A DNA stretch of 64,000 bases from Bilabrum cf. latius. Lineage: Eukaryota. The notes under the pieces were generated by a model. The model saw only the letters and a program-made list of their open reading frames with translations. It was not told where the DNA came from and searched no databases. Positions 6,354 to 47,820 of the stretch are shown here, piece by piece. Position 1 is the first letter of the stretch; the number at the start of each line of letters is the position of its first letter. The translations under genes were made by a program, and so were the position numbers. The DNA lies in NCBI GenBank assembly GCA_965178125.1, contig OZ237760.1, positions 620,001 to 684,000 on the forward strand, written 5' to 3'.

Positions 6354-7646
6354 TCATTCAGTAGGCTTGTCCCACTGGGTGCGGCCGTCCTCGTGCCCAT
6401 AGTACGTGTCGCCATCACCGTCCTGGTACGCCGTCCACCCAGCGGGCAGGGCATCCTCAGCGGCATCCTCTGGTGCAGGAGCCGGTGCCTCTGCTCCTGC
6501 CTCTGCCACAGGCCTATCCCACTGGGTGCGGCCGTCCTCGTGCCCGTAGTAGGTGTCGCCGTCGCCATCCTGGTAGGCAGACCATCCCGGTGGCAGCTCG
6601 TCTTCGCCGCCACCCCCGGACTCGGAAGCAGCGGGCGATGCGGCAGCTGGCGACGCTGCCTCCTCCTCCTCCTTGACGGCGGCGGCGGCAGCAGCGGGTT
6701 CCGCAGGCGCCGCGCCATCCTCTGCCTCTCCCTCCTCGTCCTCGTCCTCATCGTACACGTTGAGGGCCTTCGCGAACGCCACACGGGAGGCTGCCGTGGA
6801 TCCCATGGAGAGAAGAGTGGGCTATCCCCTCGCCTTGGCCAGCTGCTCCTCTGTGAACTCCCTCTTATTCTTGGTCGCCATTTTGAGGCCCAGCTGCGGA
6901 CCGTCCCACTCCGGCATCTTCTGCCTCACTGTCCTTCCGAGAGCGTGGATGTGCAGAGTGACTCCGGCGATATTTTTCTTATCGTACAGATCCGGCGTGG
7001 AGAACATTTCGAATTCATTCACGCCAAATGCGCGCGCGGCTTTCAAGTAGTTGCTGACGTTTTCCTGCGAGCACGAGCAGAAGCTATTCAGGGCCACCAA
7101 AAGTACGCCAAGGCATTCAAACATGCACAACAACATGGAATGCGCATGTGTTAACAGACGCCCAACTTTGGATGTGGCCTCACCATTTGCTTGAACTTGC
7201 TGGTTTTGCTGAGGCTGATCTTTGGGACACTTTTCGGACGAAGTTTATTGATTAGCCTGCGAGTCTTGATACGGATTAGAGCGTTCTAAATAAACTGTCC
7301 GAAGTGGTAGGGATGGCTTGTTTTCCCTCTGTTGATCAACACGAATCAAACGGCAACATTGACAAAAGATGAAAAACGTAGCTTTACCGTCTGTAGAACG
7401 ATTCAACTCACCTACATAGCATGACACCATCTCGGAGACTATCTTCATACGTTTCCTGCTGGAACTCCTTGCCAGTCACAGCTTCAATCCACTGCTCAAA
7501 AGGATCCACGAAATGGTCGACACTTGGCAAGCATACAGTTTGACTCATTCAGAGCAGCAAATAAGACTTTACCAGCTAGACGAACCCCTTACCTCCTATG
7601 CTTCCCGTTCTGCCTTTGCATCGCGCTGCTGACTTGCTGCTGCCAT
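6354..7646 (-). CDS. Calponin-homology (MP20/transgelin-type) protein with two C-terminal WW domains; 4 exons
   Basis: Spliced reading: MAAASQQRDAKAEREA*E|WIEAVTG...SLRDGVMLCR|LINKLRPKSVPKI...FKQM|ENVSNYL...FSTPDLY. Introns at 7492-7592, 7257-7411 and 7065-7183, all GTRAG..GCAG. Two LPxGWxAYQDGDGDTYYGHEDGRTQWDxP WW repeats. TAG at 7596 and 6822; ends at TGA 6354. Confidence 0.9.
6371..6596 (-). repeat. Internal duplication encoding the two WW domains (6371-6449 and 6518-6596)
   Basis: Two ~79-bp copies 147 bp apart both begin cccactgggtgcggccgtcctcgtgccc and differ mostly at synonymous sites. Confidence 0.85.
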
Positions 7647-7817
7647 GGTTTTTTGAGATACGAATGGATCGGGTCCCGCGGGTGGGCCCATGATGTGGTT
7701 CCGTATTTGCGCGGCGCCTATAACCGAGCACCTCCTTCGGAATTGGCCAGACTGTGCAGACAGCAAGTCTATTGATAGCATCGCCGATATTTTTGCTTAC
7801 TTTCCGCTGATTTTATC

Positions 7818-10800
7818 ATGAGCTCTGGCCCGGGGAACCGCAGCCTCCCATTCTCTGTGTTTTGCATTCGTTTAGAACGAATACTGGAAGTCAAGAAGTC
7901 GGGGTCCCGGTCGATTCAAGATAAACGACGAGCAATCCTGTTCCCCAAAAGTATGATTGAAATGTGGCGGTCTTGGCCTGCTGATGCCGAAGCTGGAACC
8001 GCTCGGTCTGATGATCCCGCCGGAAGCGAACTGGCCCCAGAACGCCAAAGCATAGGTGACATCGCGCCGTATATTCGGCTACTGCTGCCGCAAGAATCAC
8101 ACAGAAACTTTGGTATGAAAGAAAAAAGTCTTGCAGCTGCATTCGCTAATGCGCTCTAGCGAAATAGCCTGCAGAAGACGCTTGAAGATGCAAAAAAGTA
8201 CATTGGCAACTTTGGCGCTGCCGTCGAGAAGTACGTGGACGCCGCTGGAGAGCGCTCGCTGTTTCGTTCGTACCGCCCAGACATTCGTAGTAAGGATATT
8301 CTCGAGGCGTGGAAGAAGCCGCGTCGTCGGGGGGTCCTCACCGTGGCAGAAGTGGACCACATGCTGCATCGGCTGCATGTGGTGAATCGATCGGGCAGCA
8401 ACACAGACAAGTCGGAGAAGCGCTAGGCGATCATGCGAGAGGCGGTCCGGGCTATGGCCCCGTGGGAGCTCAGGTGGTTTGTCAGCATCATCCTTAAATT
8501 CCTACACATTAAGATGGACTATAGAAGCATCCTTCCCGCCCTCCACCCCGACGCTCTCACGGTGTTTCAAAGCAACGCGGACCTTAATGATGTCTGCTAC
8601 AGTGAGACGCTGCGCGACCCCACCCAGAAAGCATTCAGCAGCGTGAAGCCATTCAACATGATCATGCCAATGCTGGCGGAAAGGGTGCACTCCAGGTTGG
8701 CACAGTCTGAGCATGAGACCATGCGCCGGGCATGTCTCTGGTTCACAAAATCATACGATGACCCAGCTGCGGGTGGCATGGCTACCACTGGCGCTGCTGC
8801 CATGATGGACGATTTCGATGGCCTGTTGGGAGACACGGGCGCAGGGCCGATCGAGGAAGATGATGAAGAGGCAGTCCGCACGCGCGATCTTGGCTGGTTG
8901 CAGAGGCGCCACCAGGGTGGTTTCTTTGTTGAGGACAAGCTGGACGGGTTCAGACTGTTGATCCACAAACGGCTGCCACTAGCTGCTGGCGGTGGGGCCT
9001 CCTCAGCTCCGACTGCGTCGTCCTCATCATCCTCTGCTGCTGCTGCAGCTGCTGCCTCTGGACCATCACAGCCTGGTCTGCTTGCTGGGGTTGGTGCCTA
9101 GTCCGAAGTCATGTGCTTTAGTAGGATGCGAATCGTAGAGAGCAAGTTCTGTGCAGTTTTGCAGGACCACGTTCGGCAAAGCGTACGAGCTGGTGATGCC
9201 GTGATCGACGGCGAGCTGCTGGTGGTGGACGCGTCTGGCGTCCCTTTGGACAAGCAGCTGCTGCGGCCGGTCGCAGGCGTAGAAGTGGAGGCAATCAAAT
9301 CGCACAGGGAGGGTCATACCGGTAGCTCCTCATCAACTTCGTCCTCGAGCTCATCCGCAAAGCCGTCGCCATACAGACATGGTGCATCGCTTGCGGCTGG
9401 GACTGGCTTCATGGGCGGCGGTTTTGGCGGCGTGTACGGCGGGTCACAGGGCGAGGAGGAGCCCCTCCTTCCGGCTGGTGCGCCCATCGATCCCATGGAT
9501 GACGACTTTTAGCGACTGCGGGGCCTCGCGTGGAGCAAGCGCGGTCAGTCCGATCCTGAAGGTGCAGCGAGGGCAGGCAAAGCAGGGCGCCTATCTAAGA
9601 GAAAGCAGCCGCGCAAGCACACTACCATGCGCGTAGCGCAAGAATTTGGTCCTGATGGCGACATGGGCGCAAGCATGCTGGCCGAGCGTGGCGACAGTGA
9701 TGATCGTGACGAGGACGCCGATGAGGATGAGGACAAAGACGAGGCCGGTGGGAACAAGGCAGCCGCGGGTGGCAACGGCGACTTCAACTGGGACGCGGCC
9801 GGCCTGCACCTGCAGCACGTGGCGTTCGACGTGCTCTTTGTAGATAAATGGGACGAGGGCAGGATCAAAGCAGAGTGCAAGCCTGGCCTAATTGCCCAGC
9901 TCGAGCTCCTGAGGAAGACCTCGGGGGCGCAGAAGGGCCAGCTGCCCACGGGTGACCTCACTCGACTGCCGCAGTGGCAGCGCAACATCCTCCTGCGAGC
10001 CTTGGTACGGCCCGCCCCGGGGCGTATCCACCTGCACGAATCCACTTGGGTCAGCTCTCACGCACCACGGGAGGTGCTGGACAGCCTGCCAGCCGGCAGC
10101 AGCGACATCGACATCATGGCTAGGCACCTAGGCATGCTGTACACCAAGGCAAGCGAAGCAAAGCTAGAGGGCATCATGCTGAAACGATCCGATGCCACGT
10201 ATGAGCTCGGTGATCGCTCCAGGAAGTGGCAGAAGCTGAAGCCGGAGTACGTGCCTGGCGCCATGGACACACTCGACCTGGCGGTCCTGGGCGCATGCTA
10301 CAGTTCGGGCCGGTCTGCCGGCCGCAGGGGGCTCACTGGACTGACTCACTTCATCGTCGGCTGCAGGGTTGAGTCTCCTGGGGAAAGGATCCGGTTTGCG
10401 CCGTGTGGGAGGGTCGGCACGGGGTACACGTTTGATGAGCTTCGTTAGATCCAGACGAGGCTGACCCGCTGCATGGTGCAGAGGCAGCTGCCGCCCGGTG
10501 CCAGGCGATCCGGAGCTGAAGGCTCTGCAGATCTGCCAAAGGAGCTGTTCGGCGAGTCGCGGTTTACTCCCGACCACCAGCCCGACTTTTACGTGAGGCC
10601 AGAGGCGATCCACAACACCGTGGTGGTGGAGGTAATGGCATCGCAAGTGCGCGAGTCAGACGAGTTCGGTGCCGGCTTCACGCTGCTCTTTCCACGGGTA
10701 GAAGATGTGCGTCGTCCGCAGGTGGGGTCGGCAGAGGTAGATGCAGTGGACGAAGATGGTAGTATGCAGGCCGTCAGCTTGCGAGACCCGAGAGACAAGG

Positions 10801-12584
10801 GGCCCAGCCAGTGCACCCACATAAGCGAGCTCAAGCAGATCATGGTTGACAGGAATGGCCACCTCAGGAACGAGCAAAAGGCAAAGGAGCTGGCCGCGAA
10901 GGGCGATTCGGGCGGGCGCATGCGCGGCATGTACAAATAGGGTTCGGGCAAGAAGCGGAAGATGGCAGTCACGCGCACGAACATGGCCTCGGCGCTGTCG
11001 TTCAGCGTGACCGATGCAAACGTCCCGCTCCTGCAAGCGGCGAGCGGGGCGGGTTCGGGTGATGCAGAATCCAAACCGCTGGCAGGCAATGACATATTCG
11101 TGCAGCTGCAGGGTGGCACATCGGAAGCCGCAAGGCGGAACAACGCTGAGGTCCGCGCGCTCATGGGGCGCCTAGGAGGCACGTTGTTATCGAATGAGAG
11201 AAATGCTCGGTACGTGGTGATCGTCGATTCCAAGGACGCTGGCGCAGCCTCCATTCTTTCGTCCGCGAAGCGGTTGTACTCGAACGCACAAGCCAAAGCA
11301 TCCGCCAAGCGAGTGTCCGCTATGCGGTGGAAAAACCCGAAAAGGCAGGAAGAAGACCTCCGCAAAGCCGACAGGATCGAGGAGGAGGTGTGCAACCGCG
11401 ACTTTGTGCTGCTCGAGTGGCTGCGTGCCTGCGACAGGGCCGGGCACGTTGTGCCGATCCGCTGGGAGCACGTCATTGTGCCCAGCTTCCAAACTCGCCA
11501 GGAGCTGACCAGGATCAGCGACCAGTTCCACGACTACTACGAAGAGGACGCCACGAAGCAATCACTGGAGCGGTCCCTCGCAGAGGTGGAGCGGCAGGTA
11601 CAGGCGCTGGTTCGGGCTGGCGCAAGGGGGAGCTCGGGTGCTTCCGCAGCCAAGAAGCGTCGAATTGACACATCAGCGGGCGCAGGTGCTGATCTGAGCC
11701 AGCTGGCGCTGTTGCACGGCAGCGAGAGGGAGAGGGAGGACGGTCGTGCTGCATCTCGCGAGGAGCGATTCGACGTGGCTCTGCATGGCATGCTTGCGCA
11801 GCTGATGTAGGACGATCTGGATGGCGAGGGCGGTTCGCAGGACGGCGCGAGCCCGTTCGGCGACTTGGGGTTCCTTACGCAGGGTGAAGCTGGCATGTTC
11901 ATGATGTGGGTGCCTACTTCGTGGGCGTTGATCAACCGCCTCGGGGCGGCATCTGGCAGCTCTGCACCTTCGAAAGCTGCGGCCCGTGGTAGGAGCAAGC
12001 GGGCCAAGGGCGAGCATGCAGGGCCACAGACAGCTGCCGCAGTGCCGAGACGCCTCGTTGTATGGTTCGATGGCAGGCAGCGCGGCACAGTCATAGGCGG
12101 TTCCGACATAAAAGCTGTCCCTGGGTCGAGTTCGGGAAGGGCACTTGCGCTGCGGGAGACATACCTCGCGTAGATCGACTGCGCGTGCATGTGGCTGCAG
12201 AGCCGGGGCGCTGCCATTGCCGGCAGTCGGGAGGACGAGGACGTCCTGGTCGAGGTGCACGGAAGTGGCCCTCCTGGTCCTGACTTTGTGGCGCTTCCAG
12301 GGCGGGCTGTGGTAGGCATGGAGTGGGTGGAGGCTTGCAAGAAGCATGGTACTGCAGTGGATCCGAGTCAGTTCCAAATCTGGTCGCCACAGGACAGCCC
12401 TGCTGGAGGCATTGGAGGAGCACCCATGGAAGATGACTTTGGTATGCCCGCTATCGGCCGAGGCGGATCGAAGGGGCAAGCTCCCATGCAGGGCGCTGCT
12501 CGCAACTCTGGTACGCCAGGTGTTGCCGCAGTGCAGAGGCGGGCACGCAAGGGTAAGAAGAGGTTTACCCGCAAGAGGGGCTAA
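7818..12584 (+). CDS. LIG4: DNA ligase IV (NHEJ), ~1,588 aa, intronless, 8 in-frame TAG
   Basis: N-terminal DNA-binding domain (IRLLLPQESHRNFGMKEKSLA), motif I EDKLDGFR, IDGEL, AFDVL, EGIMLK, Y..GDRSRKWQKLKPEY, DTLDLAVLG, RVGTG, LLFPR and BRCT-like C-terminal segments. TAG at 8157, 8424, 9099, 9510, 10446, 10938, 11808, 12171; ends at TAA 12582-12584. Confidence 0.93.
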
Positions 12585-12712
12585 GTATGAATGCCAAGCA
12601 GGGCAGGCCTAGTAAGTTGGCGCCGGAGCACCCGATTCTGATGCAGTTGCTACGAAAGTATCCATTTTTTGTTCACACAACTTCAAACTCTGCAACAGCC
12701 TACTACAGGAGG

Positions 12713-14677
12713 TCAGGTCCTCCCCGCGGCACCCATCGGCACCTTCGGAACTGCCGACTTTTCAGCACTCTCCTTGCCATTCTGCCCACTCGTCGCCACC
12801 GTACCCAGCGCCACCGGGTCCTCGTAATCCTCCTCCCTCGCGACCTTGACCTTCCTCCTTCCCCAGCTGGTGTTGAGCAGCCCCCTGGGGTTCCAGATGT
12901 GCATGCAGCTCTCCGGCTAGACCTGGTACTGATCGTCGACCGCCCTGCACACGATCTCCACGTCTGCCTCCTTGGGCGCGGCGGCACCCTTGCCGCCCTT
13001 ACGCGCCTGCTCCAGCTTTGCCTGAGGTACGGGTACCTCGGCGCTCCACAGGGTCCACGTCCAGTCCCTGCCTCTCTTCGCCTGGTGCGCCGCGTCGGCT
13101 GGCTTTTCCTCCAGCTCAGCCTCCGTCCAGGTGTCGCCTCCGTCGGCAGACACGTCCACGCGCACGATCTTGCGGCCTCCGCCACTGTAGGCGTACCCTC
13201 GCACAGGCACGCCATCCACCTCGACCTCCCCCAGCGGCAGCACCGCACCCTCCTTCGGCTCGCACACCTGCCCCTAGATCGGCAGGTCCTGGATCGACGC
13301 GGCGGTTTCGTAAGGAAGCTTGGAGGGGTCCGCAGAGGGCGAGAATGACTTATAGTCGTGCTGCTGCCAGTGGGAGGGGCTTTCCTCCTCTGCCAGCACG
13401 ATCCGGTTGAGCCATTTTACCTGCCTGGCACCCACTACCCCGGGTGCAATCAGCCGCAGGGGATATCCGTGGTCTGCGGGGAGCTCTTCGTCGTTCATGG
13501 AGTGCGCGATGATGACGTCAGCGGACGACTGGAGCGCCTTGTGGGCCGGGACAGAGGCCCCGTAGCACTTCCCCGTGATGTCGCAATCAGCGCCCTCCGC
13601 CTGCACGTGAAGCACCCGCCCTAGTTCCGGGTTAGCGCCCCCCTGCATGATGCCGTCCGGGTCCACCCCCGCGTCTTTGAGAAGGTCCCTGAGCCTGACC
13701 CCCGTCCACCTCGCCGTGCCGATAGCCCCGTCCCTCCAAGAGAGCCCCCGGACCTGCCTTGCCTCACTCATCTGCTGCCTGCGGTTACCGGCGCACTGGA
13801 GGGTCACGGGGACCGTGACCTGCGGCAGCCGGTGCTTCAGGTCGTCCACCGTGTATGCAACCCGCTTGCCTCCGAGGCCCAGCCCGCTCACTTCGAGCCT
13901 GAAGCGGCCCGACTCGACGTCTTTCGCTGGAATGTGGGGAACAGCCAGGTGGTTTCTCTTGTAGTGAAGATCGTTTGGCGTGTAGAAGTGCGATGTCAGC
14001 AGCTGGGGGTTGGTCTCGGCATTGAACGGCTGGCTCGAGTTGATGTCGAGGCCCATGCCAGCCAACGGCCGGTCGGGCTCGTGCGCGAACGGGTCGCTAT
14101 CCTCCATCTATTTCTTTGGTTGCTTTCTGGGCTTGGCGGCTAACGGGACGTCTTCTGGGTGCAAGTTGCCAATGCGAAATGTCTCGAGAAGCGAGCGAAC
14201 GCTCTGGCTGTCCTTGTGTATGGCAAACACTTTCCAGAACGGTTCCACGGACCCGCCTGCCGCCATCATAATCTTATCTTTTCCTCCTGGGTGGCTGTCT
14301 ACAAAGTTTGTCACGTCATACACGCCATGTCTGTATATGACCCAGATACCGCCGGTTTCCTTCGACACGTGAGACTTAACTTCTTCTAGCCGAAGAGTGG
14401 GCAAGCCCGCGGTAGGTTCCCCGAGTACGATCCCACCATTGCGTGTATCATGCGATTCAACAGCCTCTGCATCATGCTAGCAACGCAACTGATACGTTCC
14501 GGCGCAGGCTGCGGCTAAAGAAGCGGCTGTTGCTGCAGCCCAGCCAAACGACGAACCGTCGAATCTTCGCCGCCCTTCCGTAACTTCCAACGCACCTAAT
14601 CGGCTACTAGTGGCCAAGCACGCTGCATTTCGGCACGCAAAGGCTATTCGCCAACTTCTCCGGCCTGCCTGACGCAT
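12713..14677 (-). CDS. SUOX: Sulfite oxidase (targeting peptide + cytochrome b5 + Moco + dimerisation domains)
   Basis: Cyt b5 motif VYDVTNFVDSHPGG; PFNAET, RNH, TLQCAGNRR, HGYPLR..PGVVGARQVKWL, GYAYSGGGR, IWNPRGLL. TAG at 14477, 14108, 13274, 12917; ends at TGA 12713. Confidence 0.95.
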
Positions 14678-14825
14678 CGAAAGGCTTGTTGAGCTCGCTT
14701 TGTCCTGGTGCAGCTGACCGCTGATGTTAGTTCCGCAACCGTCGCGCGCGGCGCCCCAGCAGAAAAGTGCACGCTACGCTTTCATTGCACTTGCCTGATT
14801 CCGGCCATCGCGGCCGAGCAAAAAC

Positions 14826-17800
14826 ATGCAGCAGAGTGATAAACTATCTCTTTAGGTTTCGCGTTGGGATCCAGGTCGCCGAAGGCTTCGTTGCTTCGAA
14901 TGTAGTTAGCAGTAGAGGCACGACTTCTGGGCATCTTGGCGACGGTTCAGGCTACTAATAGCCCTATCTGCCCTCGTTGTAGCCGCCAGGATCAGTTTTG
15001 TTCATATTATGCATAGCAGGCATGCTAGACTTCGCTATGAGACTTCGCTGGAATTTGATAAGGATTCCTAGTAGAAGCTGATGTACGGCAGACCAGCAGA
15101 ATTTACGCTTGATGATGGGCACGTTTCGCCGCCTTGGATTGATGATATGCCTGCCGCCGGATAGCTTTACTTACACGACCATGCTCGCCTGCTGGAAAGG
15201 GAGACTGGCGATTCGGCTGGCGAAGAGTCTGAACGATAGTTGCACCCCACTGAATACGACGAGGTCTTTGAGGGCAGTGGCAAGAAAAAGAAGCCAAAGT
15301 CCGACCCAAAGGACGATTTTACTATTCGAATCATGCTATGGGTTACATTGCCAGTGTCCATCTTGATGTGCCTCGCGCTGATGGCAAACTACATTACCGA
15401 CAAGCAGCGTCGTAGGCACCCTGCCTCGCTCGTCTTGGGTCGCTCCATCTACGATGCGATATGCTGCCTCGTTCTGCTCAGCTCCATGATCGTGCTGGAC
15501 AAGGACTCTAAGAAGGACGGCGGCTCGGACGCTGGCAGCGGCGAGGAGGACCTGTGCAGGCCTTTCAGCTTCTTTGTGGAGTTTGCTGCCCTGGGCGCGG
15601 AATTTTACGTCCTCATGCTGTCTCTTGATTTCATGATCGCGGTGAGCAACCCCTTCACGAACTTTCGCCAGAACAGGGGCCGCTACCACTTGGGCGTGGG
15701 CGTCTGCTCCGCCTCCATGTCGCTCGCCATGGTGATGATCGAAGGGGGCTACAAGAAGGGGGAGCCCTCCTTCTGGGGCGAAGACAAGGTCCTTGGGATC
15801 TGCTGGATTCGGAGAGACAACGGGGACACGGATCCCACCAACGTGCTGACCTTCTTCGTGGCCCCCATGTGCTTCGTGTTCGTGGTGGCGCTGTACGCAG
15901 TCATGTTCGCCAACCAGCGGCTCGGACAGGGGCTGCCAGCCACGCTGCAGACCCGGCTGTCGGTGTTTAGGACGCACATTGCATTTGTGGGCAGCTATGT
16001 CGTGTACTGGTTCATCTTTGCGGCCGCGTACATCGCCAGTTTGACTGAGAGCAAGAAGGACGGGAGCAGGGACACCCAGGGTGTGGGCATCGCGGTGCTG
16101 CTCGCGATCGCCGTGGGCTCCAGAGGAATCGTGACTGGGCTCGTGTGGTTTGCATCCAGGAATGCCATTTCCTGCTTGTGTGCAGGAAAGCAGGACGGCA
16201 GTGGCGGCTCCAGCAGGCGGCGGACGGGCAGGGCTAACGACCTGAACGTCGCCTTGAGGAAAGAGATCCTCTTCTACACTACCTTTGGGATCCGCAAGTC
16301 GGTCAAGTATGCCGGCAGGTTTCCGAAGTGCGACCGGACGGGCGGCGTGAACCCGAACTCTGCCACTGCGAGGCGGGAGGGGCTGGGTAAGGTGGGTATC
16401 CACTACAACCGCATACTGCTCACGCGCGAGTTCGAGGCGGGCAGCTGGACCCGGCAGAGGAGAGGGGCTGGCGATCATGGGCGCAGGGGGGCCGGGCGTG
16501 GCAGAGGCAGGGCAGGCAGAGGCGAAGATGGGGGCTCGGCAAGCAGTGCAGCCACGGCTGTGCCCAAGATTGAGGCCAGGGGAGAGACTGCGCGGGTGAC
16601 CGGGGGCTCGTCCGCCTCCGGTGCTCGCGGTGGGGCGGATCGCCAGGCCACGCTCCGGGCAGTCAGGGTGTCGGAGTCACACGGCGGCATCGGACAGCTG
16701 GTGAGGCGCGGGAGCGGCACGGTATCTGGGAGCTACGTGCCGCCGGCCATGGGAGGGACCTCAGAGCTTAGCAATGAACATGATATTGGAGCAGGTGCCG
16801 GGCAGGGCAATGGTACAGGTAGAGCGGGACGAGGCGCGAGATCTTCCGCCATTGCGTACATACAGCAGGGGCCGCGAAGCCGCAGGCGTCGTCAGGCGCG
16901 CGGCGTGGCCAAGCTGGCTGGCGCAGCGGTCCGGGCGGGGCAGCACGTCGCCAAGACGATCGGCTCCCAGATGGGCTCTATGCGGTCAGCAGCCGGGGCT
17001 CCAACGCGGACGGACTCCGGCACTTTCTCGCTGGAACAGAAGCGGGGGGAGTACCAACCGACTAGAGGAGCCTAGAACGGCCAGTCTCAGGCTCGCAGCT
17101 TGGCTGTGCCCGACAAGAAGCGGGCCTAGACGGTGGGTGTTGGCCAGTCTCGCCGAATCACCGCCATCTCTCTCCCACGGATGAGCCACGAGTACAACTA
17201 GAGCCATGACGGCGGCGGCGGATCTCCCCACCTTGGCGTGGTGGGTGGTATGGAGGGCGCGGAGCCTGAGCTGGGTCTGGTGGGCAGCGGCGTCGGCGCC
17301 TCTCCATCGAGGGGCGGTCGCAACGCATCGATCGGATTCGCGGCGGAAAGCGCACGCAGGGCACGTGAAAGTGGCCTTCCCCCGGGGATGCAACGGTCGG
17401 TGACGGAGATGGGGCACCTACGGGGCCGCACGTCCATGCCTGCCGCAGCGAAGCGCGACAGGCGAACCTCTGGTGAATCGAGCGAGAGCGATTTTGTGGC
17501 TGGGCTGGGCAACCAAGAAGAGCTTCGGCAGGAGCAGGAGCGGGAGGAGAAGGCTGCGATGGCCGGCGCTGCCGACATTCCCATCGCGTTGGTGAGCGGT
17601 GCCGGCGGAAGGGGCCAGAGCGGGGCCGGTGGCAGCACGCCGACTGGCGTGGCAGGTGCGCTCAATGCCGCTCTTGGGCTCGGAATCAACACGCAGGCGC
17701 AGCAGCAGGGCGCCGACATTTCTGCGCTGGTGAATCCCGACGGGGCTCGCTCTGACGTGGAAGTGACGTCATCGTCCGACTCGAGCGACGGGAGCTCAGC

Positions 17801-20800
17801 GTCAACTGGATCTACTGGAAGCGGTAGCCAGTCTGGGTCCGAGTCGGTGTCGGGAACCGTCCGAAGTGTGAGGACAGGGACGACCGGCGGCGACGCCGTG
17901 GATGCGAGCAGCAGCGCGGCCGGTGCGACAGGTCAAGACCACTCTATTCTTCGGCCAGCGCCTGGCGATGATAGCAACAACGGAGCAGCGGGTCGTCACG
18001 CCAATACGCCGGAGGGCAGCGAGGCCGGGAGCCGGCTAGCGTCCATCGGAGCCTCCGACGACAGCGAGAACGACGAGGGGATCGAGGGTGGGATGGCTGC
18101 CCCACGGTCCCGGTCGCGGGGGCCTCCGATCGCGGTTGCCACAGCGGTGGCCATTCCCGTGACTGGGGGTTCGGGCGGGTCTGGCACTGGCTTGGACGCG
18201 CAGCTAGACTCCGAGATGGACGCGATCCAGAGACAGCAGCAGCTGCAGCGCGCCAGTCACCACGATCGCAGCTCTCTGCCGCCGCTGACCGCGTCTGCTA
18301 CCAACTCGCACACAATGCGGTCCGTTCCGGCAGATTCGCTTCACAGCCTCAACGCCGGGGAGCCCTTGCGGATCAAGACCACGGGTGGGCGCGAAAGCGG
18401 CGACCGAGTGGATGCAGACAGCAGCGGTCACGCCACCCCTGACATGTTCTCGCGGATGTCACCCGCCCCGGGCAATTTGAAGATCGAAGATGCCTGGGAT
18501 ACAACGCACGGGGTCGCCGACCTGCACCCACCAATGGGCACCAATTTGGACGCTGCCTAGGCGCAGGAGCTGCGGGCTGGCTTGCTGGGCACGGGCGCGG
18601 GAGTGCACACTGGTATCGCATCCAGGCTTGCCCTGCATCACCACAGGCTGCAAGCGCAGGCCAGGGAGGGCGACGGGACCGGATCCTCCTCGCACGCGCG
18701 GGGGTCCTCTCCGGGGAACACATCGAACGAGGGGAAGGCGGCAGCGGATGGCACCACGACGTCCTTGAGCTCGAAGCACCACCACCACCACCATCACAGA
18801 AGGGGCAGCCACCATCGGCACCATCGGCACCATCGCCACGGCCACCACCGGAGCCACGGTCACGGTCACCACGACAAGAACGACGTGCGGACCAGGTACT
18901 CCCGCATGTACGGCGGGTACGGCCCCGGGCATTTTATTGGTGGATTCGGCGGGGAGCAGACGCATAACGACCTGATGCTGTTCGCCAAGCAGTGGGACCG
19001 CATTCGCAAGTGGATGTCGCTGGAGGAGCGCTGGCAGCACTCGGAGAAAAAGAGGCAGCACCGCCTCAGGAAGCTGAGAGACGCACCAGTGGAGGACAGC
19101 GAGGCGCAGACCCGGCTGCGGGAGCTGGTTGCACCCCATCCTAGGCCCATGCCCGGCTCTAACCCCACCTCGGCTGCCCCATACGAGCACACAACTCTGC
19201 CAGCGATGTCTAAGGGCGCCGGCAGCTTCTGGGAGAGCTGTCTAGAAGACACAATCTTCGGGGAGGTGCTGCAGTACCTGACCTGCGGGAACCTATTTGG
19301 GTGCGACAACGAGCAGGCGTTTGTTTTTAGAGACTACGAGCCGCACATTTTCAAGAGGATTCGGGAGCAGGATGGCATCGAGTAGAACGCATACGAGAGC
19401 GCGTTAGGAGAGACCCGTCGCGAGAAGTTCAGCGAGGGCGCAAGCGGAGCATTCCTGTATTTCAGCGGCGACGAGCGGTTCATCGTGAAGACGATGCAGA
19501 AGGAGGAGTGCGACCAGCTGCTGGCGATGCTTTCGGACTACCAGCAGCATCTCAAGGCGTACCCCGACAGCTTTCTGACTAGATTCTACGGATGCCACAG
19601 CCTTCGGATGTACGGGCACGTCATGTACTTTGTCGTGATGGGCAACGTCTTCATCACGCAAGGGAAGACCATCCACGAGAGGTTTGACCTGAAGGGTTCC
19701 TGGGTCAACCGGCACAGGCAGCCTGTGGAGAAGGGCAAGCAGATGGAATGCAGGTACTGCAACCAGAAATTCGTGGTGGGGGACAAGCGCGAGGACGGCA
19801 TGTGCACGGCGAGACCGAACCGCAACCACGAGCCCAACAACGTCAGCAAGGACAACGACCTGAATTTCAAGCTGAGGCTGGACCACGCAACCACGAGGGC
19901 TGTCGGCGACACCATCATCGCGGACACCAATTTCCTTCGCGACCACGGCATCATGGACTATAGCCTTCTGCTGGGCATTCACCGCGAAACGTATCACCTG
20001 ATGGTGGAGAACAACGACGAGAACGGCGATGGTCTCGTCTCTGGCGGCGGTGCCTCTTCAGAGCTCTCTGCAAAGCGAGGAAGCGGGACAGGGGGCTCTC
20101 GCTCGCATCTCTCGAGGGATGGAGGGCACGGGAACGGGAACGGCCGTCCGCCGCGCATGGGCCGGCACCTCGCGACCACCAGTCATATTCGCGGCGTCGT
20201 GGCCGTGTCAACTGAGAGCAAGCTGGGCTAGTGGGCCACTGAGGACGCGTAGAAGGAGTACATCGGGGAGGAGGGAATGCCTGAGCCAAGGGCTGCTAGC
20301 CAGGGCGGTGGGGCCTCCGCGTATTCGGCGGGGGCAGGCAGCCGCAGTGGGATGGGGCAGCGGGGCGGGCACCGCGGCGGTTCGTTACCGACGGATGGTC
20401 TCCGCGGCGTAGAGGATACCCGCCACCACGGGCACCACGGGTCCATGCGCTCGCACGTCTCTAGCCTCCGTGGCGGGTCCATGACCCATAAACCGAGCCC
20501 GCTCCGATCTGCAGTCCTACCCAAGCGCGGTGAGGGGGGTGGGGACCAGGCCAGGTCCAGGCAGTCCCAGTCTCGCGATCGCTCCTCAAGGGCCGGTCAG
20601 TCGGCAGGCGGGGTGGGACTCGACAAGACTGCGTCAGGGGCGTTTCACGGCAGCAAGATAATGGATGCCGGGGGCCAGAGCAGGGGCGTGCTGCGTCGAC
20701 TGGACACGCCGAAACCGAGGGAGGAGGGCTATCGCGCTGAACGGCGCACTGGATCCGGCGGCAATCACCGGGATCGAGACATGACGCAGCGGCTGCGGCG

Positions 20801-22607
20801 AGCTCCCACTGAGGGCGGGCAAACCACCTGGGGCCTTCACGTCGGTACGCCCACGGAGAGAGGCAGCGGGGGCGGTGGCAGCGCCTGGGGCCTGGAGAAG
20901 CCCCCCACTCCAGCGGTAGGGCGGTCGTTGGACATCGGGCCAGACGCCGGACCTGGGCATGGCCTCGCAGATCAGGCGGACGCGGAGGAGGCCGAGCTGG
21001 AGGCCCTCCGGAAGGGGGGCCGGAACCGCGGGGGTGTCCAAACCGGCGGGAACAAGCAGCCTTCGGGTGCGATCAGGGTGTCTGGCGCCCAGCGGGACGC
21101 CGACGACATGGAGGACGTGCTGGGGCTCGCGGTGGGCGGGTTTGCGGGAGAGCTGCGGGACGAGCTGTGCGAGGGGCAAGGTCGGAATTCAGGCGATGAT
21201 GCGCCGCCTTCTTCGCCGCCGAGAGGGGGCGTGCAGGACGAGGAGACACTGGGCATGCTGGCAGGTCATGCTGTGTGGTCCGACGCCCGTGGCATGGCCG
21301 TTGTGGACGAGGAAGCAGCGCGGCGGCCGGACGACGGCGATCTGCCCGGAGGTGATGATGAGGGGCAGGGGGGCGACCTCGGCGTGGTGTTGCACTCGGC
21401 GTCGCACCGCAACAGCAAGTCCAAGAAGGGTCGCGATAGAGGTACCGAGGACGGCAAGGGCAGAGGCCGGGCGGCAGGCCCCGTGGCGCAGGTGGTCGGC
21501 CTCAGATAGGTACCCTCACGTGGCTCGCTTGCGCAGCAAGCACTGGGCATTGCTGCTGGCGGCGTGGGGAAAAGCGAAAGCCAGAATGGGGCCGGGAGCG
21601 GCAGCGGCCCGGCGGTCGCCCCAGCACCAGGCCTGCACGCGCCTCGCTTCTCGCGTGTCCGTTCAGTTTTGGGGCACGACACAATGATGTCAGGAAAGGC
21701 CAGCGAGGCGGGCGGCGGAGGGCCGTCTGCTGCAGCTGCATCGCGTACAGTGGATGGGCATTCGGAGGCCGGAAGGGGAAGGCTGCGGCACAGGCGCGCG
21801 CACCGGCACAAGGGTGGTGGAGGCGCAAGCAGCAGCGCGCTGGCGAAGGCAGCTGCTGCGGAGGAGGGCAGGGTCTCGAGCAAAGAGGCTGGTGCTGGGA
21901 CGGGCGGCATGGTGGAGTCGCAGTTCCGCAGTTTTTACGGCGGTCTCCGCGCTGCGATGGTAGAGTCGCCCGGCATCTACTACATGGGAGTCATCGACAT
22001 CCTGCAGGCGTTCACGCTCGAGAAGAGGATGGAGCGCTTCGTGAAGACATACTTCCTGTGCCAGGACCCGCTTGGGATCAGTGCGATCGAGCCGAGGCAG
22101 TACGCGAGCCGGTTCCGCCGCAGGGTTGTGTACTAGTGCCTGGACCACTACGTGCCCACGTCCGACCAGAAGGATCTGGACTTCGAGGACGAGGCCTTGG
22201 ACATGGAGGAAATGGAGGAAATGGGCTGCCTGCGCGGGTGGTTGCGGTGCGAGGGGGACGATCATGAGGACGAGGTGGAGCGGATTTGGTTGGAGAGGCT
22301 GGCAGATGAGCGGAGATAGGGTTAGCTACAGCGGGTGGCTGTGCTGCGGTCTGGACATGGGTCTGGGCCCGGCAGGACGGGGACGAGGAGGAGCTCTATG
22401 CACGGGTCTGGGTCCGCGTGGGGGGTGCAGCAACCGCCGGTGCTGGGGCGGTAGGCCACGGTATCTGCTTACGGACGGGCGCGGCTGCCATCGGCCGAAC
22501 ACGCCAAGGCTGGGCCTGTCGCAGTTCCTAGGTCGCACGCGCAGCACGGCAGAGCGACCGCAGCTCTGGATTCCGGCGACTTGAGCAAGCCCCTGCTGCG
22601 GGACTAA
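14826..22607 (+). CDS. GPCR-PIPK fusion (7TM receptor + PIP5K kinase), ~2,590 aa, about 19 in-frame TAG
   Basis: 7TM region ~15330-16160, then the LR(x)9GI motif LRKEILFYTTFGI. PIPK motifs FRDYEPHIFKRIR, FSEGASGAFLYFS, FIVKT, FDLKGSW, KDNDL, IMDYSLLLGIH and YYMGVIDILQ. One frame with no TAA/TGA from ATG 14826 to TAA 22605-22607. The start could alternatively be 15009 or 15081. Confidence 0.9.
18777..18872 (+). repeat. His-rich (CAC/CAT) low-complexity coding tract within GPCR-PIPK
   Basis: Encodes HHHHHHHRRGSHHRHHRHHRHGHHRSHGHGHH. Confidence 0.8.
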
Positions 22608-32333: not shown

Positions 32334-32566
32334 ATTGCTGGAACTTCGATCTGAAATCTCCGAAACCAACGGTCTGTAAAATTGCAATTCCGAGTTGTTG
32401 ACCGGCTGCATGCACTGGTGGCCACTGACGGGCAGAGGTGACCCTGTGTGTACGATGCGTAGTCACGACTTCGATCCAAGCGTGATGGCAGGAAACGCGC
32501 CAATTGTATTAGAGAGTATGCATTGCAAGCACGGCAGCACTGCTGTAGGCCTAGAGCCAGCACTGG

Positions 32567-34252
32567 TCAGCACGCACCAGCAGCCGCCCCAGCTGCGACC
32601 ACGAACGCATACTCGTACGGCCCAAGCTAGAGCGGAGAGCCCGATCGCAGCGTGGGTGGATCGCTGAGAGTCGGGACGGCAAAGTCTGGCCCCGGGCCGA
32701 GAGCCAGGTCCTCCCAGCTGTCGCTGCCCGAGCGCCACTGGGCCCCGTCAGAGCTTAGCAGTGCCGACGACCCAACACGGCTGGAGCTGGAGGCGGCGGC
32801 AGCGCTGCTCCGCACCTGCCAGACGCACAGGGGGTCCTTGTTCCCCGGCAGGGACACCTCCATTGATTCGGAGCCGATATTCGCGAGCAAGTAGGTGGCC
32901 GCCCCCTTGTCGCCCGGCTGCACGCACCGGTTGCGGGGTAGGCGGGCCGCGGCAGAGCACGACGCGAATGCGTTCAGATCCGAGAGGTGGGCCTCGGCCG
33001 AGCCCTGGGCCTGGATATCCACGGTGAGAACCGTGCTACCCATCGTGCGCGCGTGCAGCATGGCCGTAAAGTAGGAGGGGTGCGGCAGGTGGGTGGTGCG
33101 GTTGATGAGCTCGTAGTCCCCCCCGATGAGCGTGCTCCTGGCGAACCGCTGCACCCCGTCGTTCCGCAGCTGCCCGAGCACAGTGGTGTACCACACCATG
33201 TCTGCGTATCGGTCCGTCCACCCTGCTGCGCCGCCCTGGGATGCGGGACCCACCTCGCCCGCCATGGCCTGCAGACCTGGGTACTGGCTAGCCAGTTCGG
33301 CGGTGTGGTGGCCGTTCACAGTAGTGCTGTGGATCGAGCTCGGGTCAATGAGCTAGCCAGCGCACGAGATGTTGCTTGATGAGCACTAGTAGTCGTGGTA
33401 CGTCGTATAATTCAGCACGTGCGCACATGTGTCTAGGAATGGCTAGAAGAACGCAGGCTAGAACCGCGAGTCTGGCCCCACGAGCATGGGGCGGCTCGAT
33501 GCGTCCGTCCAAAGCTAGCTGATGATTTCGCTGACCCGGATAGTGTCCTTGGCGAGGACAATAGGCTCGACCTTAAACCGGCCGTTCCCCAATTCGTTCC
33601 TGCGAAAGCTTAAGTGCGAAGCTTGCACCTCGGAGCTGCAGCTACGTGCTGCTGGAAGTGCGCGCTCTACAACACCGCATCAGATTTCTCACCCGAGCTC
33701 AAATGCTGCTACAGAGCTATTGTGTTCTTTTGCAAACTTCAAGAGGGCTTCTAGATTATCAGTCGACATGGGCGACGTCTTGTTTCCGGGCTCTCTGTGG
33801 TACATCCCATTCAGGCCAAAAAACAATTCTACACCTGTTTTGGCGCGAAACTCTTGGATCTACTACCATCGATCCATTGTAAGGCATTTTGTTTGGGGCT
33901 CAGGCTTTTGCGGCGGGTTGGTTACGTTGGGGCACTCGGTTTGAGATCCAATGACATACACGACTTGATCTGCCGGTGTACCTCCAATTCTCCATGTTGC
34001 GGGAGTCACCGCCTTTACTAGATTGATCAACTTTGGATCAGTCAGGTTTAGGGTCAAAATACCACCGTCGGGTGACCATTTGTCCCCGTAAGGCCCATAA
34101 TTAAGATAGTAATCGGTGGTGAACCCGACGAAGGCATCTGCGACTCGTCGGACAGCATGTTTAGCCGTACTCCCATTTATGGAAACACTGAAAGAAGAGC
34201 CCTTCGCTAGTAACGCACTCGAAGCTGCAGCTGCAACAAAGAATATTATCAT
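32567..34252 (-). CDS. GH79 heparanase/beta-glucuronidase-like secreted glycosidase; 2 exons
   Basis: Signal peptide; WRIGGTPAD; CLTMDRW**IQEF; FFGLN; catalytic FELGNE formed across intron 33600-33692; nucleophile region AGEVG; RSTLIGGDY; PHPSYF; C-terminal PL*LGPYEYAFVV...AC then TGA 32567. 8 TAG. Confidence 0.9.
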
Positions 34253-37900: not shown

Positions 37901-39574
37901 CTGCTGGTCTCCCGCAATCATGTTAGAGTAGACCAGCTTGGCGAGGTCCAGCGTGACCTTGAGCGATATGGGGATCATGGTGCTGTTAAGGAGGAGGAAC
38001 CTGGCCGGGATGATGAGCGGCTGGTAGCCGGGCTCATCGTCCCTGCTCGGGTACAGCAAGTACCAAGTGTCCCGGCCGTTGTTCTCTTTCCATGTGTTCC
38101 CCAGTACGCCTAGGATGGCCACCAGCACCAGCTAGAACGCAAAGATGTAGATGACGATCTCGTTGATCGCGTCATCGGTACGCGTAAACTTGGGAGCCGG
38201 GGGCTTCTTGTTCTTGCCAAACTTGGTCGCGTTGCCCACGTACACGACGAGGGCCAGGGCCCAGTCCGTGTTGCGGACGTGGGTGGCCTGCAGCAACAGG
38301 TTGCTGGCGTCCAGTCCGACCCCTTTCTCTCTCTGCCCCACGTCGGCTTTCTTCTCGTAGAGCACGCCCTCGAACTCGCCCAGGTTGTCGTCGGGGGGCT
38401 GGCAGGTCACCCCCCCCGTGAAAGAAGCGGCAGCGGCGGGGGTCTTGATGGACTTGGTGATGGGCCTGCTGAAGCGCCCCTTCAGATTGGACTCGCCGTC
38501 CAGGTTTGTCGTCTGGATGAAGCAGTCGCCGTTGGGTGCGGAGCTGGCCAGCAGGACGCAATCGCAGGGCACCTCGTCGTCTCCGTGCAGCTTGAGGATG
38601 TCGCCCACGCGCACGTCCCAGCTGGCAGTGCTAACCTCCTCTCCCCCCCGCAGCACACGCACCTGCCTGTTGTTGGCCTCGCGGTCGGACCTCCATCTGC
38701 CCAGGTCGTCCGAGGCTTCCTTAACGGCCGTGATGCCGAAAATCACTGCGAGCGAGCGAGCACGAGCGTGAAACGGGCGGCCAAGCACGGGAATGCAGGT
38801 TATGGCGCTGATGAAATACGCAGGGGAGTTGACGCTTCTATTCGACGAGCGGCGAATTTGCCAGACACGATCCGACCCGCACAAAAGTCCAAAACTACCG
38901 GAGGGGCGATGTTCGACTCCTGCAGGCCCTTTCTCACCTAAAAGCGGAATCCATGTCGTCAGTGGATCGACGGGAGTAATTTCACTGTTCAATTGCAGGA
39001 ACCCGATCAATAAAAAGTACAGATTCATTGGACGACTGCGATGGAAAAACGACGTGGTGTGCATACGGGTGGAAACAGTGGGCCAGTCGGCTGCACTGAA
39101 TTCGAATACAGGAGGGCAAACACAAGGACCGGTTACGTTGATATCAGTTCCAATGCCTTGCTAGGTCAGCTGGGAGAGCACAGCAAGCAAGCGGCAATTG
39201 GGTGCACGCACGCACCTAGCTTCAGAACATGCATCGGGCTCGCCCTGCCAGCCAGGGCTATAGTTTACTTGCAGCTCCAATTCGGCACGCAAGAGAAGCC
39301 TGCCCGCTAACGCAATCAAGCTGTGGCGCACACCATGATGAACATCCAGACCGTGCACGAGCCAAACTAGGTTTGAAGCGTCCACGACATGCTTTCGCCA
39401 AACAATACTGCATCCTCACCTGAACTACTCAATAAGATTATACAGGATGAAGTTGTACCATGTATATTTCGTGTTTGTAATGGTGTTGTCGCCATAAGGG
39501 GCATTCGACTCAGGGTCATTGGCTAGGATCCGCCTTTCGCCCTCCTCCTCGCCACCCCACGGGCACATTCCCAT
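34943..39574 (-). CDS. P4-type ATPase (phospholipid flippase, ALA2-like); 3 exons
   Basis: NTITNTKYTWYNFILYNLIE*FS|RPMNLYFL; LDGESNLK; IPISLKV; DKTGTLTQN; SPDEEA; KGAD; TGDK; CCRVTPAQKA; IGDGGNDVSMIQ. Introns at 39036-39419 and 38746-38937. TAG at 39425, 38132, 36653, 36647. Ends at TGA 34943, though the 3' end may differ (see findings). Confidence 0.93.
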
Positions 39575-43070: not shown

Positions 43071-44906
43071 TCACTGCCTGCCGCCCTGCACCTCCTGCCC
43101 GGCTGCAGCACCCTCGGAGCCGCCGCCGAGCACGAGCCCGACCTCCTGAAGAGCCTCCGTGTCCTGCGTGACCCTCGCCACCACGCACGCCTGCAGCTCG
43201 TCGAACTGCTCCCGCTCCCGCTCCCTCCCCTCCCGCAGCTCGGCCGAAGCGCTCGCCCCTGCGCCCAGCCTGTCACTGAGGTCGGCGTTCTTCTTGAACT
43301 CGGTCTCGAATGCGCTCGCCTGCGAGGGGCAGACCACCTGTCCGGAGCACATCATCAGCGCAAGGTGCGCCGTCGCCCTCTCCTCCTCCGTGGAGGCGCT
43401 CGCAAGCCGCTTCTTGATCACGCTGCAGCGCTTGTCAAGGCCCTCCAGGCGGGCGGCCGCGGCGCGCTGGGCCTCCGTGAGCTTTTTCTTGGCCGCGGCT
43501 GCGGCCTCTGCGGCTCGCCGAGTGACGCCAGCGGAGGGTGCCGCCTGTTCCGCAGCCCGGGCGGCCTGCTCCGCCTTGTTGGCCCCGTGGGTCTCCCCCC
43601 CCTGGTCCAGGGCAGCCTTGACCTCTGCAGGGACCTGGGAGGGGTCGATCCCAGAGGAGTGGAAGACGAAGGCGGGTCTGCGGAGGGCTGCAAGCATCCT
43701 CTCCGAGAAGCGCGCGATCCGGTCCATGGCGGCAGAGGGCGAGTCCACGGCGGGCCGCACGTCCACCCAGATCGAGTCGAGGCTGCCGGTCCCATCCGCC
43801 CCAGCGTTGGGGTTCGGCTGCCCCTCATCCACAGAGTAGTAGTCAATGATGTACCTGACTTCCTTGCCGTCACCCCTGTCCACGTACCAGTCGTGCCTAT
43901 CAAAGGGGAACCCCCAGCCGAGCATGCTCTTGAGCTTGGCCTTGATCGAGAGGTCGTACGGACGTCCGCGGAACCGGCGCAGCTTGGGGCAGCCTGGCTT
44001 GTGTTCGCTGCGAGAGCAAGGATGCAGAGGTGAATGATGCAAAACATGAGCACATACGGCGGATGGATCACATGCAATACAGGGATGCCGCACTGTTGGG
44101 GGCGGCGCGCTACCAGGCGACACAGAGGCCAGCCCATCAGCACCGATCAGCCCGAGCACTGCGCAACGTCCGCAAGAATCCAGCCGGACAAGCAAAGCAA
44201 AACAAATGATTCCAAGCAGAAAATGCAATGCAATAGACCAGTCTCACGCTCCGTGCAGCTTCTCCCAGTCAAGGAGACGCTTCCACGTCAGCTCGTTCAT
44301 GCCATTGTGAATCGCCACTACCACGTCCATGTCGCTGGCTGTCACGTCATGCGCCTTGTTCTTCCTAACTAAAGCATTGTAGAACATCTGTGGGGACGGG
44401 TATGTCCAAGTTTCCTTCTCCGTGCCGCCCTTTGGGATGGAAGACCTCACTCGCTCGGTAGACAGAGGAGCGTCCTGACCAGGGGCAGGCTTCTGCGTGT
44501 CGAGCCCCTTCGGCATCATGTTATCAGGGTTGATCTCCTAGGAATAAACATTGTAAACCTTCCCTTTGGCCGCCGAGTTTTCTGCCTTAGGCTGGGTGGA
44601 CGGCTGCGAAACCTGCTCCTGGCTCGCCGTTCCCCGCTAGGGCAGCGTGGGATGGCCAGCCGGCAGGCTTGAGGCGGATGCCATAGCCTGGTCCGGAGAC
44701 TCTTTACCTTTGTCGTGGTACGGGCACTGGCCTGCCCCGGAGCGCATCATATCCGCCAGGCCAGGGATGCTCTTGGCTGACTTGCCGCTGTGATCAACAG
44801 GGCAAGACCCAGCTTTGGGTGCCTCTCCGTGATTAACTGGGCACCCTTTGGCCTGCGAACCGCCATCACCATCACATCGTGACATCGAGTTCGGGACATT
44901 CCCCAT
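43071..44906 (-). CDS. HCCS: Holocytochrome c synthase (cytochrome c heme lyase) with a C-terminal extension; 2 exons
   Basis: CPV heme-regulatory motifs (GCPVNH, SCPVDH); YNVYS*EINPDNMMP; LSTERVRSSIPK; WTYPSPQMFYNAL.RK; IHNGMNE..W; FRGRP..LS.KA; PFDRHDWYVDR; VRYIIDYY; VDVRPAVDS. Intron 44008-44247; TAG at 44637 and 44538; TGA 43071. Confidence 0.93.
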
Positions 44907-45061
44907 TACTTACGAATCACAACTGTGCCGGGGCGAGGAAGTCCAGATTGACGGAATCAGGATAATAACAATTACACGCAACATTAATGAGTGCGCGGCG
45001 CCCATTGTTCCGTAATTGTCTGGTTCGACCAAACAGCCGTCTATTTGGCTCGAATCAAACC

Positions 45062-46346: not shown

Positions 46347-46950
46347 ATGGCGGCAGCAGGAGCCGCGGTTCCATCCGAACCGTTTATTAAGATTATAACG
46401 TAAGCTAGCTGATGTTTGTTGCCTTTCATCAAGGTCACAAAATCGGCCTGCCTACTGCCAGACGTTGCGTTCCGGTTTCGAGATATTCACAATTTGCAGG
46501 GGTGACGGCCACACATTCCACGTCGAACGGAAGTGTGCTTTTGTGTCTAGCACAATTCGAACCATGATGACCGGTAAGAGACTGGTTTATGCTGTGTTCC
46601 AGGCTTTTTCTTGCCACATGAATCCATTCAACCCATGCACGAGTTGTATTTCGCATCGGCTTGCAGGGGAAATGGCTGAGGCCCGAGAAAATGTCGCTAG
46701 ATTTCCTGAGATTGACGGCCAAGTCATGGAGCGAGTAATTCAGTACATGCATTACAAGGTGAGTACTTGCTCAGCAGGATTGCCCGAACGAACATCTCGC
46801 ATCCGAAGATTGTGCTGCTGCATGTTTCGCACCACATCTCTCGAATCGCAGGTTAAGTATAGCAACAGCAGGACTCCACCACCGGACTTTCGCATCGCCC
46901 CAGAGATCGCGTTGGATTTGTTGATGGCTGCCAACTACTTGGGGTGCTGA
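46347..46950 (+). CDS. ELOC: Elongin C; 4 exons
   Basis: [46 protein letters not shown]...[13 protein letters not shown]...[22 protein letters not shown] then TGA. Introns at 46400-46499, 46574-46666 and 46759-46851. No TAG codons. Confidence 0.95.
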
Positions 46951-47319
46951 CTAGGCCGCGAGGAATTCGCGTAGTTTGTCGTGTGGCTGATATGCTAACA
47001 CAGGAAATGCTATCACAAAAATCTCCGTTCCTATAGTGCTACCAGGTTCGATCTGCTGCAGCCCAACACCCCACCGACTCCGGTCCAACGCAAACCATCA
47101 CATCCCGCGCACTCGTGCTCGGACCCCATTGTCAGTGGCCTGTGGTCGTCACTGTGCACGCCATGGTGCTGTCCATGGTGTTGTCCACTGGTCGAATGAG
47201 CCAGACTACCAGCAATGCAATGGACGCGTCCGTCTATCGAGCATCGACACATGTTCGAGTGGGCGCATGACAACTGGCCCCCCTAGGCACGACTTCAAGC
47301 AAAGCAGAATAGCACCCCA

Positions 47320-47820
47320 TCACTTCTGCTGCTTCATGAAATGCACAATACCAGCTCCCACCAGGCCCCCAACGACTGCAGCGATACCGCACTGGACAGC
47401 CATTTGTGCGAGATCTGTCTTCGCTGCTCTAGGGGCTTCAAAATCCACAGCAAACTTGTCCGAGCAGATCGCCCCGATGGCTTTCTTGATATCGCAATGG
47501 ACAGGGTCGGCCTAGTATTCCTCAAGCGCCTTCTTGCTGGCCACTCGAACGCTGAGGCCGATGTCGTACTTGCCTGTGCTCACTGGATGGAAGTTGTTTC
47601 CGACGCTTACCTCCTCTACGGTGGGTACAGTCTCTACCATACTAGCAACTGCGCAAAGTACCATAGGCAACTATGACTTGAATATGCTGTTTCCGAGCCT
47701 GTCAGTGAATCAAACTGCGTATCAATAACCAGTCACTGTCTTACGGTCTCCCATGACCTTCTCGATCGTGTTTGCACTGGTTCCCTCCTTCCATTTAAAC
47801 AAAACAATGTGCTCAACCAT
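47320..47820 (-). CDS. Stress-responsive A/B barrel (Dabb) protein with a C-terminal transmembrane tail; 2 exons
   Basis: MVEHIVLFKWKEG...D|LASMVETVPTVEEVSVGNNF...YDIGLSVRVASKKALEEY*ADPVH...FAVDF, then a hydrophobic tail and TGA 47320. Intron 47649-47744; TAG 47512. Confidence 0.85.

Follow-up and report, generated by a model that had tools for sequence, protein, structure and literature searches.

A nuclear code with UAG alone read as glutamine (Gln) has been described for Iotanema spirale, Protocruzia tuzeti, Hartmannula sinica and Trochilia petrani (PMC5304391, PMC11687900). The code in which both UAA and UAG specify Gln (UAR, NCBI table 6) is listed for Amoeboaphelidium protococcarum, ulvophycean algae, hexamitid diplomonads, Streblomastix and many ciliates, and UAG is given as Leu in the rhizarian exLh and some ciliates and as Ser in Scotinosphaera (PMC11687900, PMC5304391). 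Separate meanings for UAG and UAA are rare, the cases named in these accounts being Iotanema, Protocruzia, two phyllopharyngean ciliates, a rhizarian and Scotinosphaera. Here we consider a 64,000-nucleotide stretch of DNA from Bilabrum cf. latius (contig OZ237760.1 of assembly GCA_965178125.1, positions 620,001 to 684,000), hereafter the window, within which a first-pass annotation had flagged three TAG codons as standing at Gln columns: one in a CH/calponin-like gene, one in the gene for holocytochrome-c synthase (HCCS) and one in a gene for a Dabb-domain protein. We conclude that this GC-rich nuclear genome very probably reads UAG as Gln, with UAA and UGA retained as stops, a code of the NCBI table 15 type, the three flagged TAGs being ordinary Gln codons.

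Across the whole window TAG serves as a sense codon, and it occurs in frame far beyond chance. The longest stop-to-stop open reading frame (ORF) measures 611 amino acids (aa) under the standard code and 2602 aa when TAG is read as sense, at which point eight ORFs exceed 1000 aa (2602, 2577, 1628, 1602, 1490, 1296, 1133 and 1097 aa); treating TAA in this way makes essentially no difference to the longest ones. The TAG-sense ORFs encode ligase IV-like, sulfite oxidase (SUOX), GPCR-PIPK, Nudix, DENN-kinesin, GH79, P4-ATPase, Wntless-like, S10 peptidase and Myb proteins, and Pfam domains run across TAGs in HCCS, Dabb, SUOX, the ligase, the kinesin, GH79, Nudix, the P4-ATPase and Myb. The ORFs counted take up 56.6 of the 64 kb and hold 18,873 in-frame codons, with 644 CAG, 165 CAA and 133 TAG codons and no TAA, a zero that is partly built in, the ORFs having been delimited by TAA and TGA, and that to this extent tells against the code proposed. 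If TAA:TAG followed CAA:CAG (165:644), about 34 in-frame TAA codons would be expected. Because none is observed against these 34, and because the ORFs end in TGA or TAA, UAG alone appears to have been reassigned. The table 6 code, which resembles the window in turning a stop codon over to Gln, was rejected on the same deficit of TAA, on the 165 uses of CAA and on the three ORFs that end in TAA.

An explanation of the TAGs by pseudogene lesions, errors of sequencing or sporadic read-through can be regarded as effectively refuted, its probability being negligible: the 133 in-frame TAGs, with neither TAA nor TGA in frame among the same codons, occur in every gene examined. A relative of the 1097-aa orphan ORF bears on the same question. 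Only one of 8000 scored candidates passed in the search for such relatives, and this protein, P0148, which is 82% identical, does not span a TAG; it ends one residue before the TAG at 497–499 (minus strand). Its end just ahead of the codon suggests that the TAG is conserved in the relative and that the relative was annotated with the standard code.

A code in which TAG is sense within genes yet a stop at some gene ends, as in Condylostoma, Blastocrithidia and karyorelict ciliates (PMC5304391; bioRxiv 10.1101/2022.04.12.488043), would be hard to see in ORFs delimited by TAA and TGA, since these would continue past the end of any gene that stops at TAG. Each of the 18 gene ends modelled, however, has TGA or TAA: the 15 long ORFs close with TGA in 12 cases and TAA in three, and the CH, HCCS and Dabb genes all terminate at TGA. 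The TAGs are also spread over the full length of ORFs, from aa 170 to aa 1091 of 1097 in one example. We therefore give such a dual role only a slim chance.

To which residue UAG has been assigned was examined with a Codetta-like test, in which domain regions were translated with TAG as each residue in turn and scored against Pfam, and the bits were summed. All 20 residues were compared over eight families with 16 TAGs (HCCS, Dabb, Mo-co_dimer, Kinesin, DNA_ligase_A_N, two GH79 pieces and Myb). Gln ranks first of the 20 with 589.3 bits, followed by Lys (585.5), Asn (582.8), Glu (580.7), Asp (580.3), Ser (578.2), Ala (576.2), Arg (575.0), His (574.9), Thr (574.8), Met (570.5), Gly (565.7), Val (562.3), Cys (562.0), Leu (561.6), Tyr (559.7), Pro (559.4), Ile (557.6), Phe (551.2) and Trp (548.5). 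With four added families (E1-E2_ATPase, NUDIX, Nudix_hydro and DNA_ligase_A_C), which were scored for seven residues only, the sum over 12 families and 20 TAGs is 803.9 bits for Gln, 798.1 for Lys, 795.5 for Glu, 794.5 for Asn, 791.5 for Asp, 790.7 for Ser and 770.9 for Leu. On these profile scores hydrophobic and aromatic residues, Leu included, are firmly ruled out. Alignment of sulfite oxidase points the same way: both of its conserved TAGs lie in the dimerisation domain opposite Gln in chicken SUOX (1sox). The four SUOX alignments are all to chicken sulfite oxidase, as wild-type, mutant or truncated constructs, and for that reason count as one homolog. Two further measures do not separate the candidates. 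The TAG at the N-terminus of the PIP5K region gives 132.7 bits with each of 10 residues tried, because the codon falls outside the domain envelope, and by the composition of residues neighbouring TAG, Leu, Met, Arg and Gln are no more than 1.5 bits apart.

The three flagged TAGs all lie where the first-pass annotation placed them, on the minus strand and in frame inside genes, the coordinate it quoted for each (7596, 44538 and 47512) being the lowest base of the codon. Five introns were modelled across the three genes (Table 1), and all fit GT[AG]AG...CAG. The strings VYNVYS-TAG-EINPDNMMP in HCCS and ALEEY-TAG-ADPVH in Dabb are each contiguous in a single exon. In the CH gene the TAG of the string EREA-TAG-EWIEA is equally real, but the string itself is interrupted: in the DNA ..EREA-TAG-E is followed by GTAAGG, and WIEA is reached only once an intron has been removed. 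The description of these positions as Gln columns fits the nearer homologs of HCCS and Dabb, and no wider set, and it does not fit CH.

The two HCCS exons score 117.2 bits (exon 1) and 83.2 bits (exon 2) against Pfam Cyto_heme_lyase (PF01265; cut-off 23.8), and the spliced protein aligns across the exon junction to a hidden Markov model (HMM) of 120 homologs with 349.6 bits. At the TAG column these 120 homologs have Gln in 69, Arg in 17, Glu in 13, Thr in 11, Ala in two, Asp in one and a gap in seven; Leu, Lys and Ser occur in none of the 113 that are aligned there, and Gln is present in all 14 best matches. The homolog HMM likewise scores Gln highest (219.4 bits, with 218.4 for Arg and 217.1 for X). 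The Pfam profile, by contrast, is flat over the two TAGs of exon 1, with Ser at 119.0, Asp at 117.7, X at 117.2 and Gln at 117.0 bits, so that the check which had been proposed against this family does not bear out a Gln column, although most homologs and every best match do. Since the Pfam profile is flat and the nearer homologs carry Gln, the residue is a feature of a subfamily and not a family consensus; judged from the alignments, it belongs to the YNVYSQ.I subfamily, as the mention of ‘many protist HCCS’ in the first-pass annotation had implied. The second TAG of the gene (aa 90) faces a gap in 116 of the 120 homologs, and the homolog HMM is flat there. The protein begins Met-Gly and extends about 210 aa past the Pfam domain (43071–43700, minus strand), and some homologs have a C-terminal motif that aligns with part of this extension, in the region of ..CSGQVVCPSQA...

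For the Dabb gene, the Pfam match (PF07876) has an E-value of 2.5e-12 and a score of 47.7 bits (cut-off 25), and the spliced protein of 134 aa aligns over its full length to a homolog HMM with 131.6 bits. An exhaustive search of representatives gave 11 matches at E <= 1e-3, of which the 6305-aa P0137 was left out and ten were aligned; P0138 falls short of the TAG column, leaving nine informative homologs. Five of these nine have Gln, and the other four have Gly, Leu, Glu and Asn, one apiece. Gln is also the top residue in the Pfam profile, by 0.5 bit only (48.2, against 47.7 for Met, 47.6 for Ala and Asp and 47.5 for Leu), and in the homolog HMM (105.5 bits, with 104.0 for the next residue). 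The C-terminal hydrophobic tail of the protein (47320–47420, minus strand) resembles a tail anchor and is common to the homologs P0138 and P0146.

The CH gene is related to calponin and transgelin: 13 homologs match with PF00307, 12 of them also with PF00402, and an HMM built from the 13 matches solved structures of calponin 1, calponin 2 and transgelin. Against this HMM the spliced model that includes exon 1 and its TAG scores 180.5 bits. Translation could instead start from an ATG at 7548 that shares the frame of exon 2, and from which the sequence reads uninterrupted into EQWIEAV with a normal CAG codon for Gln; the flagged TAG would then lie outside the coding sequence and say nothing about the code. 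This TAG-free model, however, reaches 168.8 bits, 11.7 fewer, whilst exon 1 aligns to the N-terminal helix of the family and takes the match about 11 profile positions further into that conserved helix. The splice sites of intron 1 fit the local consensus, and the upstream ATG at 7646 has AAAAAACCATGG context. Because of the difference in score and the extension of homology into the N-terminal helix, we accept the splice that the first-pass annotation had assumed, as the alignments favour it, with a small residual doubt that is also the measure of the start at 7548. A second in-frame TAG, in exon 4, is Gln in both P0121 and P0122, ORF-called orthologs from close relatives that are 97% and 88% identical, respectively, over a 110-aa query region. 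Exon 4 also encodes WW domains (Pfam, 2.5e-13), which are present in none of the 13 transgelin-like homologs retrieved; two nearly identical WW repeats (..GW.AYQDGDGDTYYGHEDGRTQWD.P twice; 6354–6640, minus strand) close the calponin-like protein.

Several observations weigh against Gln, and some of them lend themselves to other assignments. Leu, for which UAG stands in the rhizarian exLh and in certain phyllopharyngean ciliates, could call on the flagged TAG of the CH gene, which lies two residues before an invariant Trp (the W-2 column). Leu dominates this column, with nine of the 13 homologs, the others being Gln (two), Met (one) and Phe (one), and the family consensus there is accordingly not the Gln that had been claimed; the HMM built from the homologs gives 182.1 bits for Leu, 181.9 for Met and 181.5 for Gln. 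Gln occurs at W-2 only in two homologs, reading EAQTWIE and QAQEWIEA, and these are the sole matches to the ‘MP20-type’ motif that had been invoked. In five chains of known structure, those of calponin 1, calponin 2, transgelin-2, chicken calponin and transgelin, the residue is Arg, Arg, Ile, Arg and Val, respectively. Furthermore, the conserved-core TAG of the P4-ATPase ORF, the one of its four that was aligned, stands opposite Leu in human ATP8B1 and ATP8A1, and Leu is the top residue in E1-E2_ATPase, with 37.1 bits vs 36.2 for Gln. Against this, Leu trails Gln by 27.7 bits over eight families and by 33 over 12, is found in none of the 113 HCCS homologs and is not the residue of the close CH orthologs, which have Gln. 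The assignment to Leu is strongly disfavoured, and we allow it next to no probability. The P4-ATPase TAG itself, at 38132–38134 (minus strand), is inside transmembrane helix 3 (TM3), where Gln would be an unusual polar residue.

A polar residue other than Gln, namely Lys, Glu, Asn, Asp or Ser, is harder to set aside, since the lead of Gln over Lys is only 3.8 bits for eight families and 5.8 for 12. Gln is slightly outscored by another residue in nine of the 12 Pfam families: Ser in HCCS (by 2.0 bits), Ala in Myb (2.7), Asn in GH79b (1.3), Leu in the P4-ATPase (0.9), Asp in GH79a and Glu in NUDIX, LigC and Kinesin are examples. Precedents exist as well, UAG being reported as Ser in Scotinosphaera and as Glu in a ciliate (PMC11687900). 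Set against these are the first rank of Gln in the summed score, the Gln of chicken SUOX at both conserved TAG sites, the HCCS column with 69 Gln of 113 and neither Lys nor Ser, and the Gln at the exon-4 TAG in both near-identical CH orthologs. Such a residue is, in our estimate, unlikely, if a shade less so than the dual role of TAG considered above.

Other points count against Gln without favouring any one alternative. The ortholog evidence at the exon-4 TAG of the CH gene consists of two proteins only, compared at the protein level, and against the distant homologs that column prefers Val, Gln being neutral in the homolog HMM. The Nudix TAGs fall in variable columns of solved structures, opposite Trp, Gly, Pro and Ala at one and Val and Ala at the other. 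The 64-kb window holds no tRNA gene found by ARAGORN, no Rfam match and no eRF1 among its ORFs.

Taken together, the three flagged columns are weaker and less uniform than had been stated; two of them support Gln at the level of the subfamily, and the CH column does not. The first-pass annotation had also held that five unrelated families agree on Gln. SUOX does agree, but the statement is too strong, because the core TAG of the P4-ATPase faces Leu in both human proteins and the CH column is mainly Leu. The overall reading of TAG as Gln is nevertheless supported, and very likely.

By analogy with known cases, a tRNA-Gln with anticodon CUA would decode UAG, and eRF1 would have lost recognition of UAG whilst retaining that of UAA and UGA. 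The tRNA-Gln(CUA) of Tetrahymena is described as reading UAG and not UAA, and Iotanema eRF1 as carrying a T32G change in the GTS motif (PMC5304391).

Table 1. Positions in the window of the modelled exons and introns and of the sulfite oxidase ORF.
Feature	Position	Strand	Details
CH gene exon 1	7593..7646	-	ATG 7646..7644; flagged TAG 7598..7596, one codon before GTAAGG donor
CH gene intron 1	7492..7592	-	101 nucleotides (nt), GAG/GTAAGG...GAGCAG/TGG; same pattern as the other four modelled introns
CH gene exon 2	7491..7412	-	spliced model
CH gene exon 3	7256..7184	-	spliced model
CH gene exon 4	7064..6354	-	includes TGA stop; second in-frame TAG 6824..6822; two WW domains
Sulfite oxidase ORF	12716..14851	-	TAGs with first bases 13276 and 12919, both opposite Gln in chicken SUOX
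HCCS exon 1	44248..44906	-	flagged TAG 44540..44538; second TAG 44639..44637 in unalignable insert; Cyto_heme_lyase 1.4e-33
HCCS intron	44247..44008	-	240 nt
HCCS exon 2	43071..44007	-	ends at TGA 43073..43071; Cyto_heme_lyase 3.1e-23
Dabb exon 1	47745..47820	-	ATG 47820..47818
Dabb intron	47744..47649	-	96 nt
Dabb exon 2	47320..47648	-	flagged TAG 47514..47512; C-terminal hydrophobic tail; TGA stop 47322..47320

Further features of the window concern the long ORFs. The 2602-aa ORF (14799–22604, plus strand) contains 19 in-frame TAGs and combines a weak match to a 7TM receptor with a PIP5K kinase domain, a GPCR-PIPK architecture; the 2577-aa ORF (24732–32462, minus strand) contains 12 and joins DENN/dDENN domains to a C-terminal kinesin motor. 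Tandem in-frame TAG-TAG pairs are found at 33862–33867 in GH79, at 50808–50813 in the acidic tail of the Wntless-like protein and at 15069–15074 at the N-terminus of GPCR-PIPK. Two GH79 ORFs in the same frame are separated by 12 nt with two stop codons (33680–33691, minus strand), a gap that is probably a short intron or a boundary. The 1602-aa ligase ORF, which ends at a TAA, gains only 2 aa when TAA is read as sense (12582–12590, plus strand), so that a second stop probably follows two codons on.

The closest likeness of the window is to the table 15 systems, in which UAG is likewise Gln and UAA and UGA stay stops. A further likeness is that a partial share of TAGs falls at Gln-conserved columns, the figure reported for two ciliates being 58–70% (PMC11687900). 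The codes with UAG as Leu or Ser share with the window the reassignment of UAG alone and the retention of UAA as a stop, but differ in that Leu and Ser score 33 and 13.2 bits behind Gln, respectively, over the 12 families, and in that the close orthologs carry Gln. Iotanema is described as anaerobic (PMC5304391), whereas the window encodes HCCS and SUOX, an aerobic gene set, and these genes point to aerobic mitochondria. The window also differs from the table 15 systems in its GC content of 55–67%, about 60% overall, and in its GT..AG introns. Ciliates are generally AT-rich. Among the organisms with the table 6 code, Amoeboaphelidium was ruled out as the source on GC content, its genomes being given as 40.5% and 39.9% GC (PMC10608142), or about 40% against the 60% of the window. 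In a protein atlas, a stretch of SUOX free of TAG matched generic molybdopterin clusters only.

In conclusion, the type of code, UAG alone reassigned to Gln, is already known, and the window at most adds another case. Its possible novelty lies in the host: a GC-rich, aerobic eukaryote that is neither ciliate, fornicate nor aphelid may have evolved this rare code independently, in a lineage without a described code change, a proposal that we offer tentatively and to which we give somewhat less than an even chance. No GC-rich non-ciliate aerobe with a UAG-only Gln code was found in the literature, in a search that was not directed at the organism and was incomplete in coverage, and which is no proof of novelty. 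Annotation of this genome with the standard code would truncate nearly every gene, and the predicted proteins of its relatives are visibly cut at TAGs, P0148 being an example. A further case in a GC-rich aerobe would offer independent evidence of the way in which eRF1 and a tRNA(CUA) can uncouple UAG from UAA.

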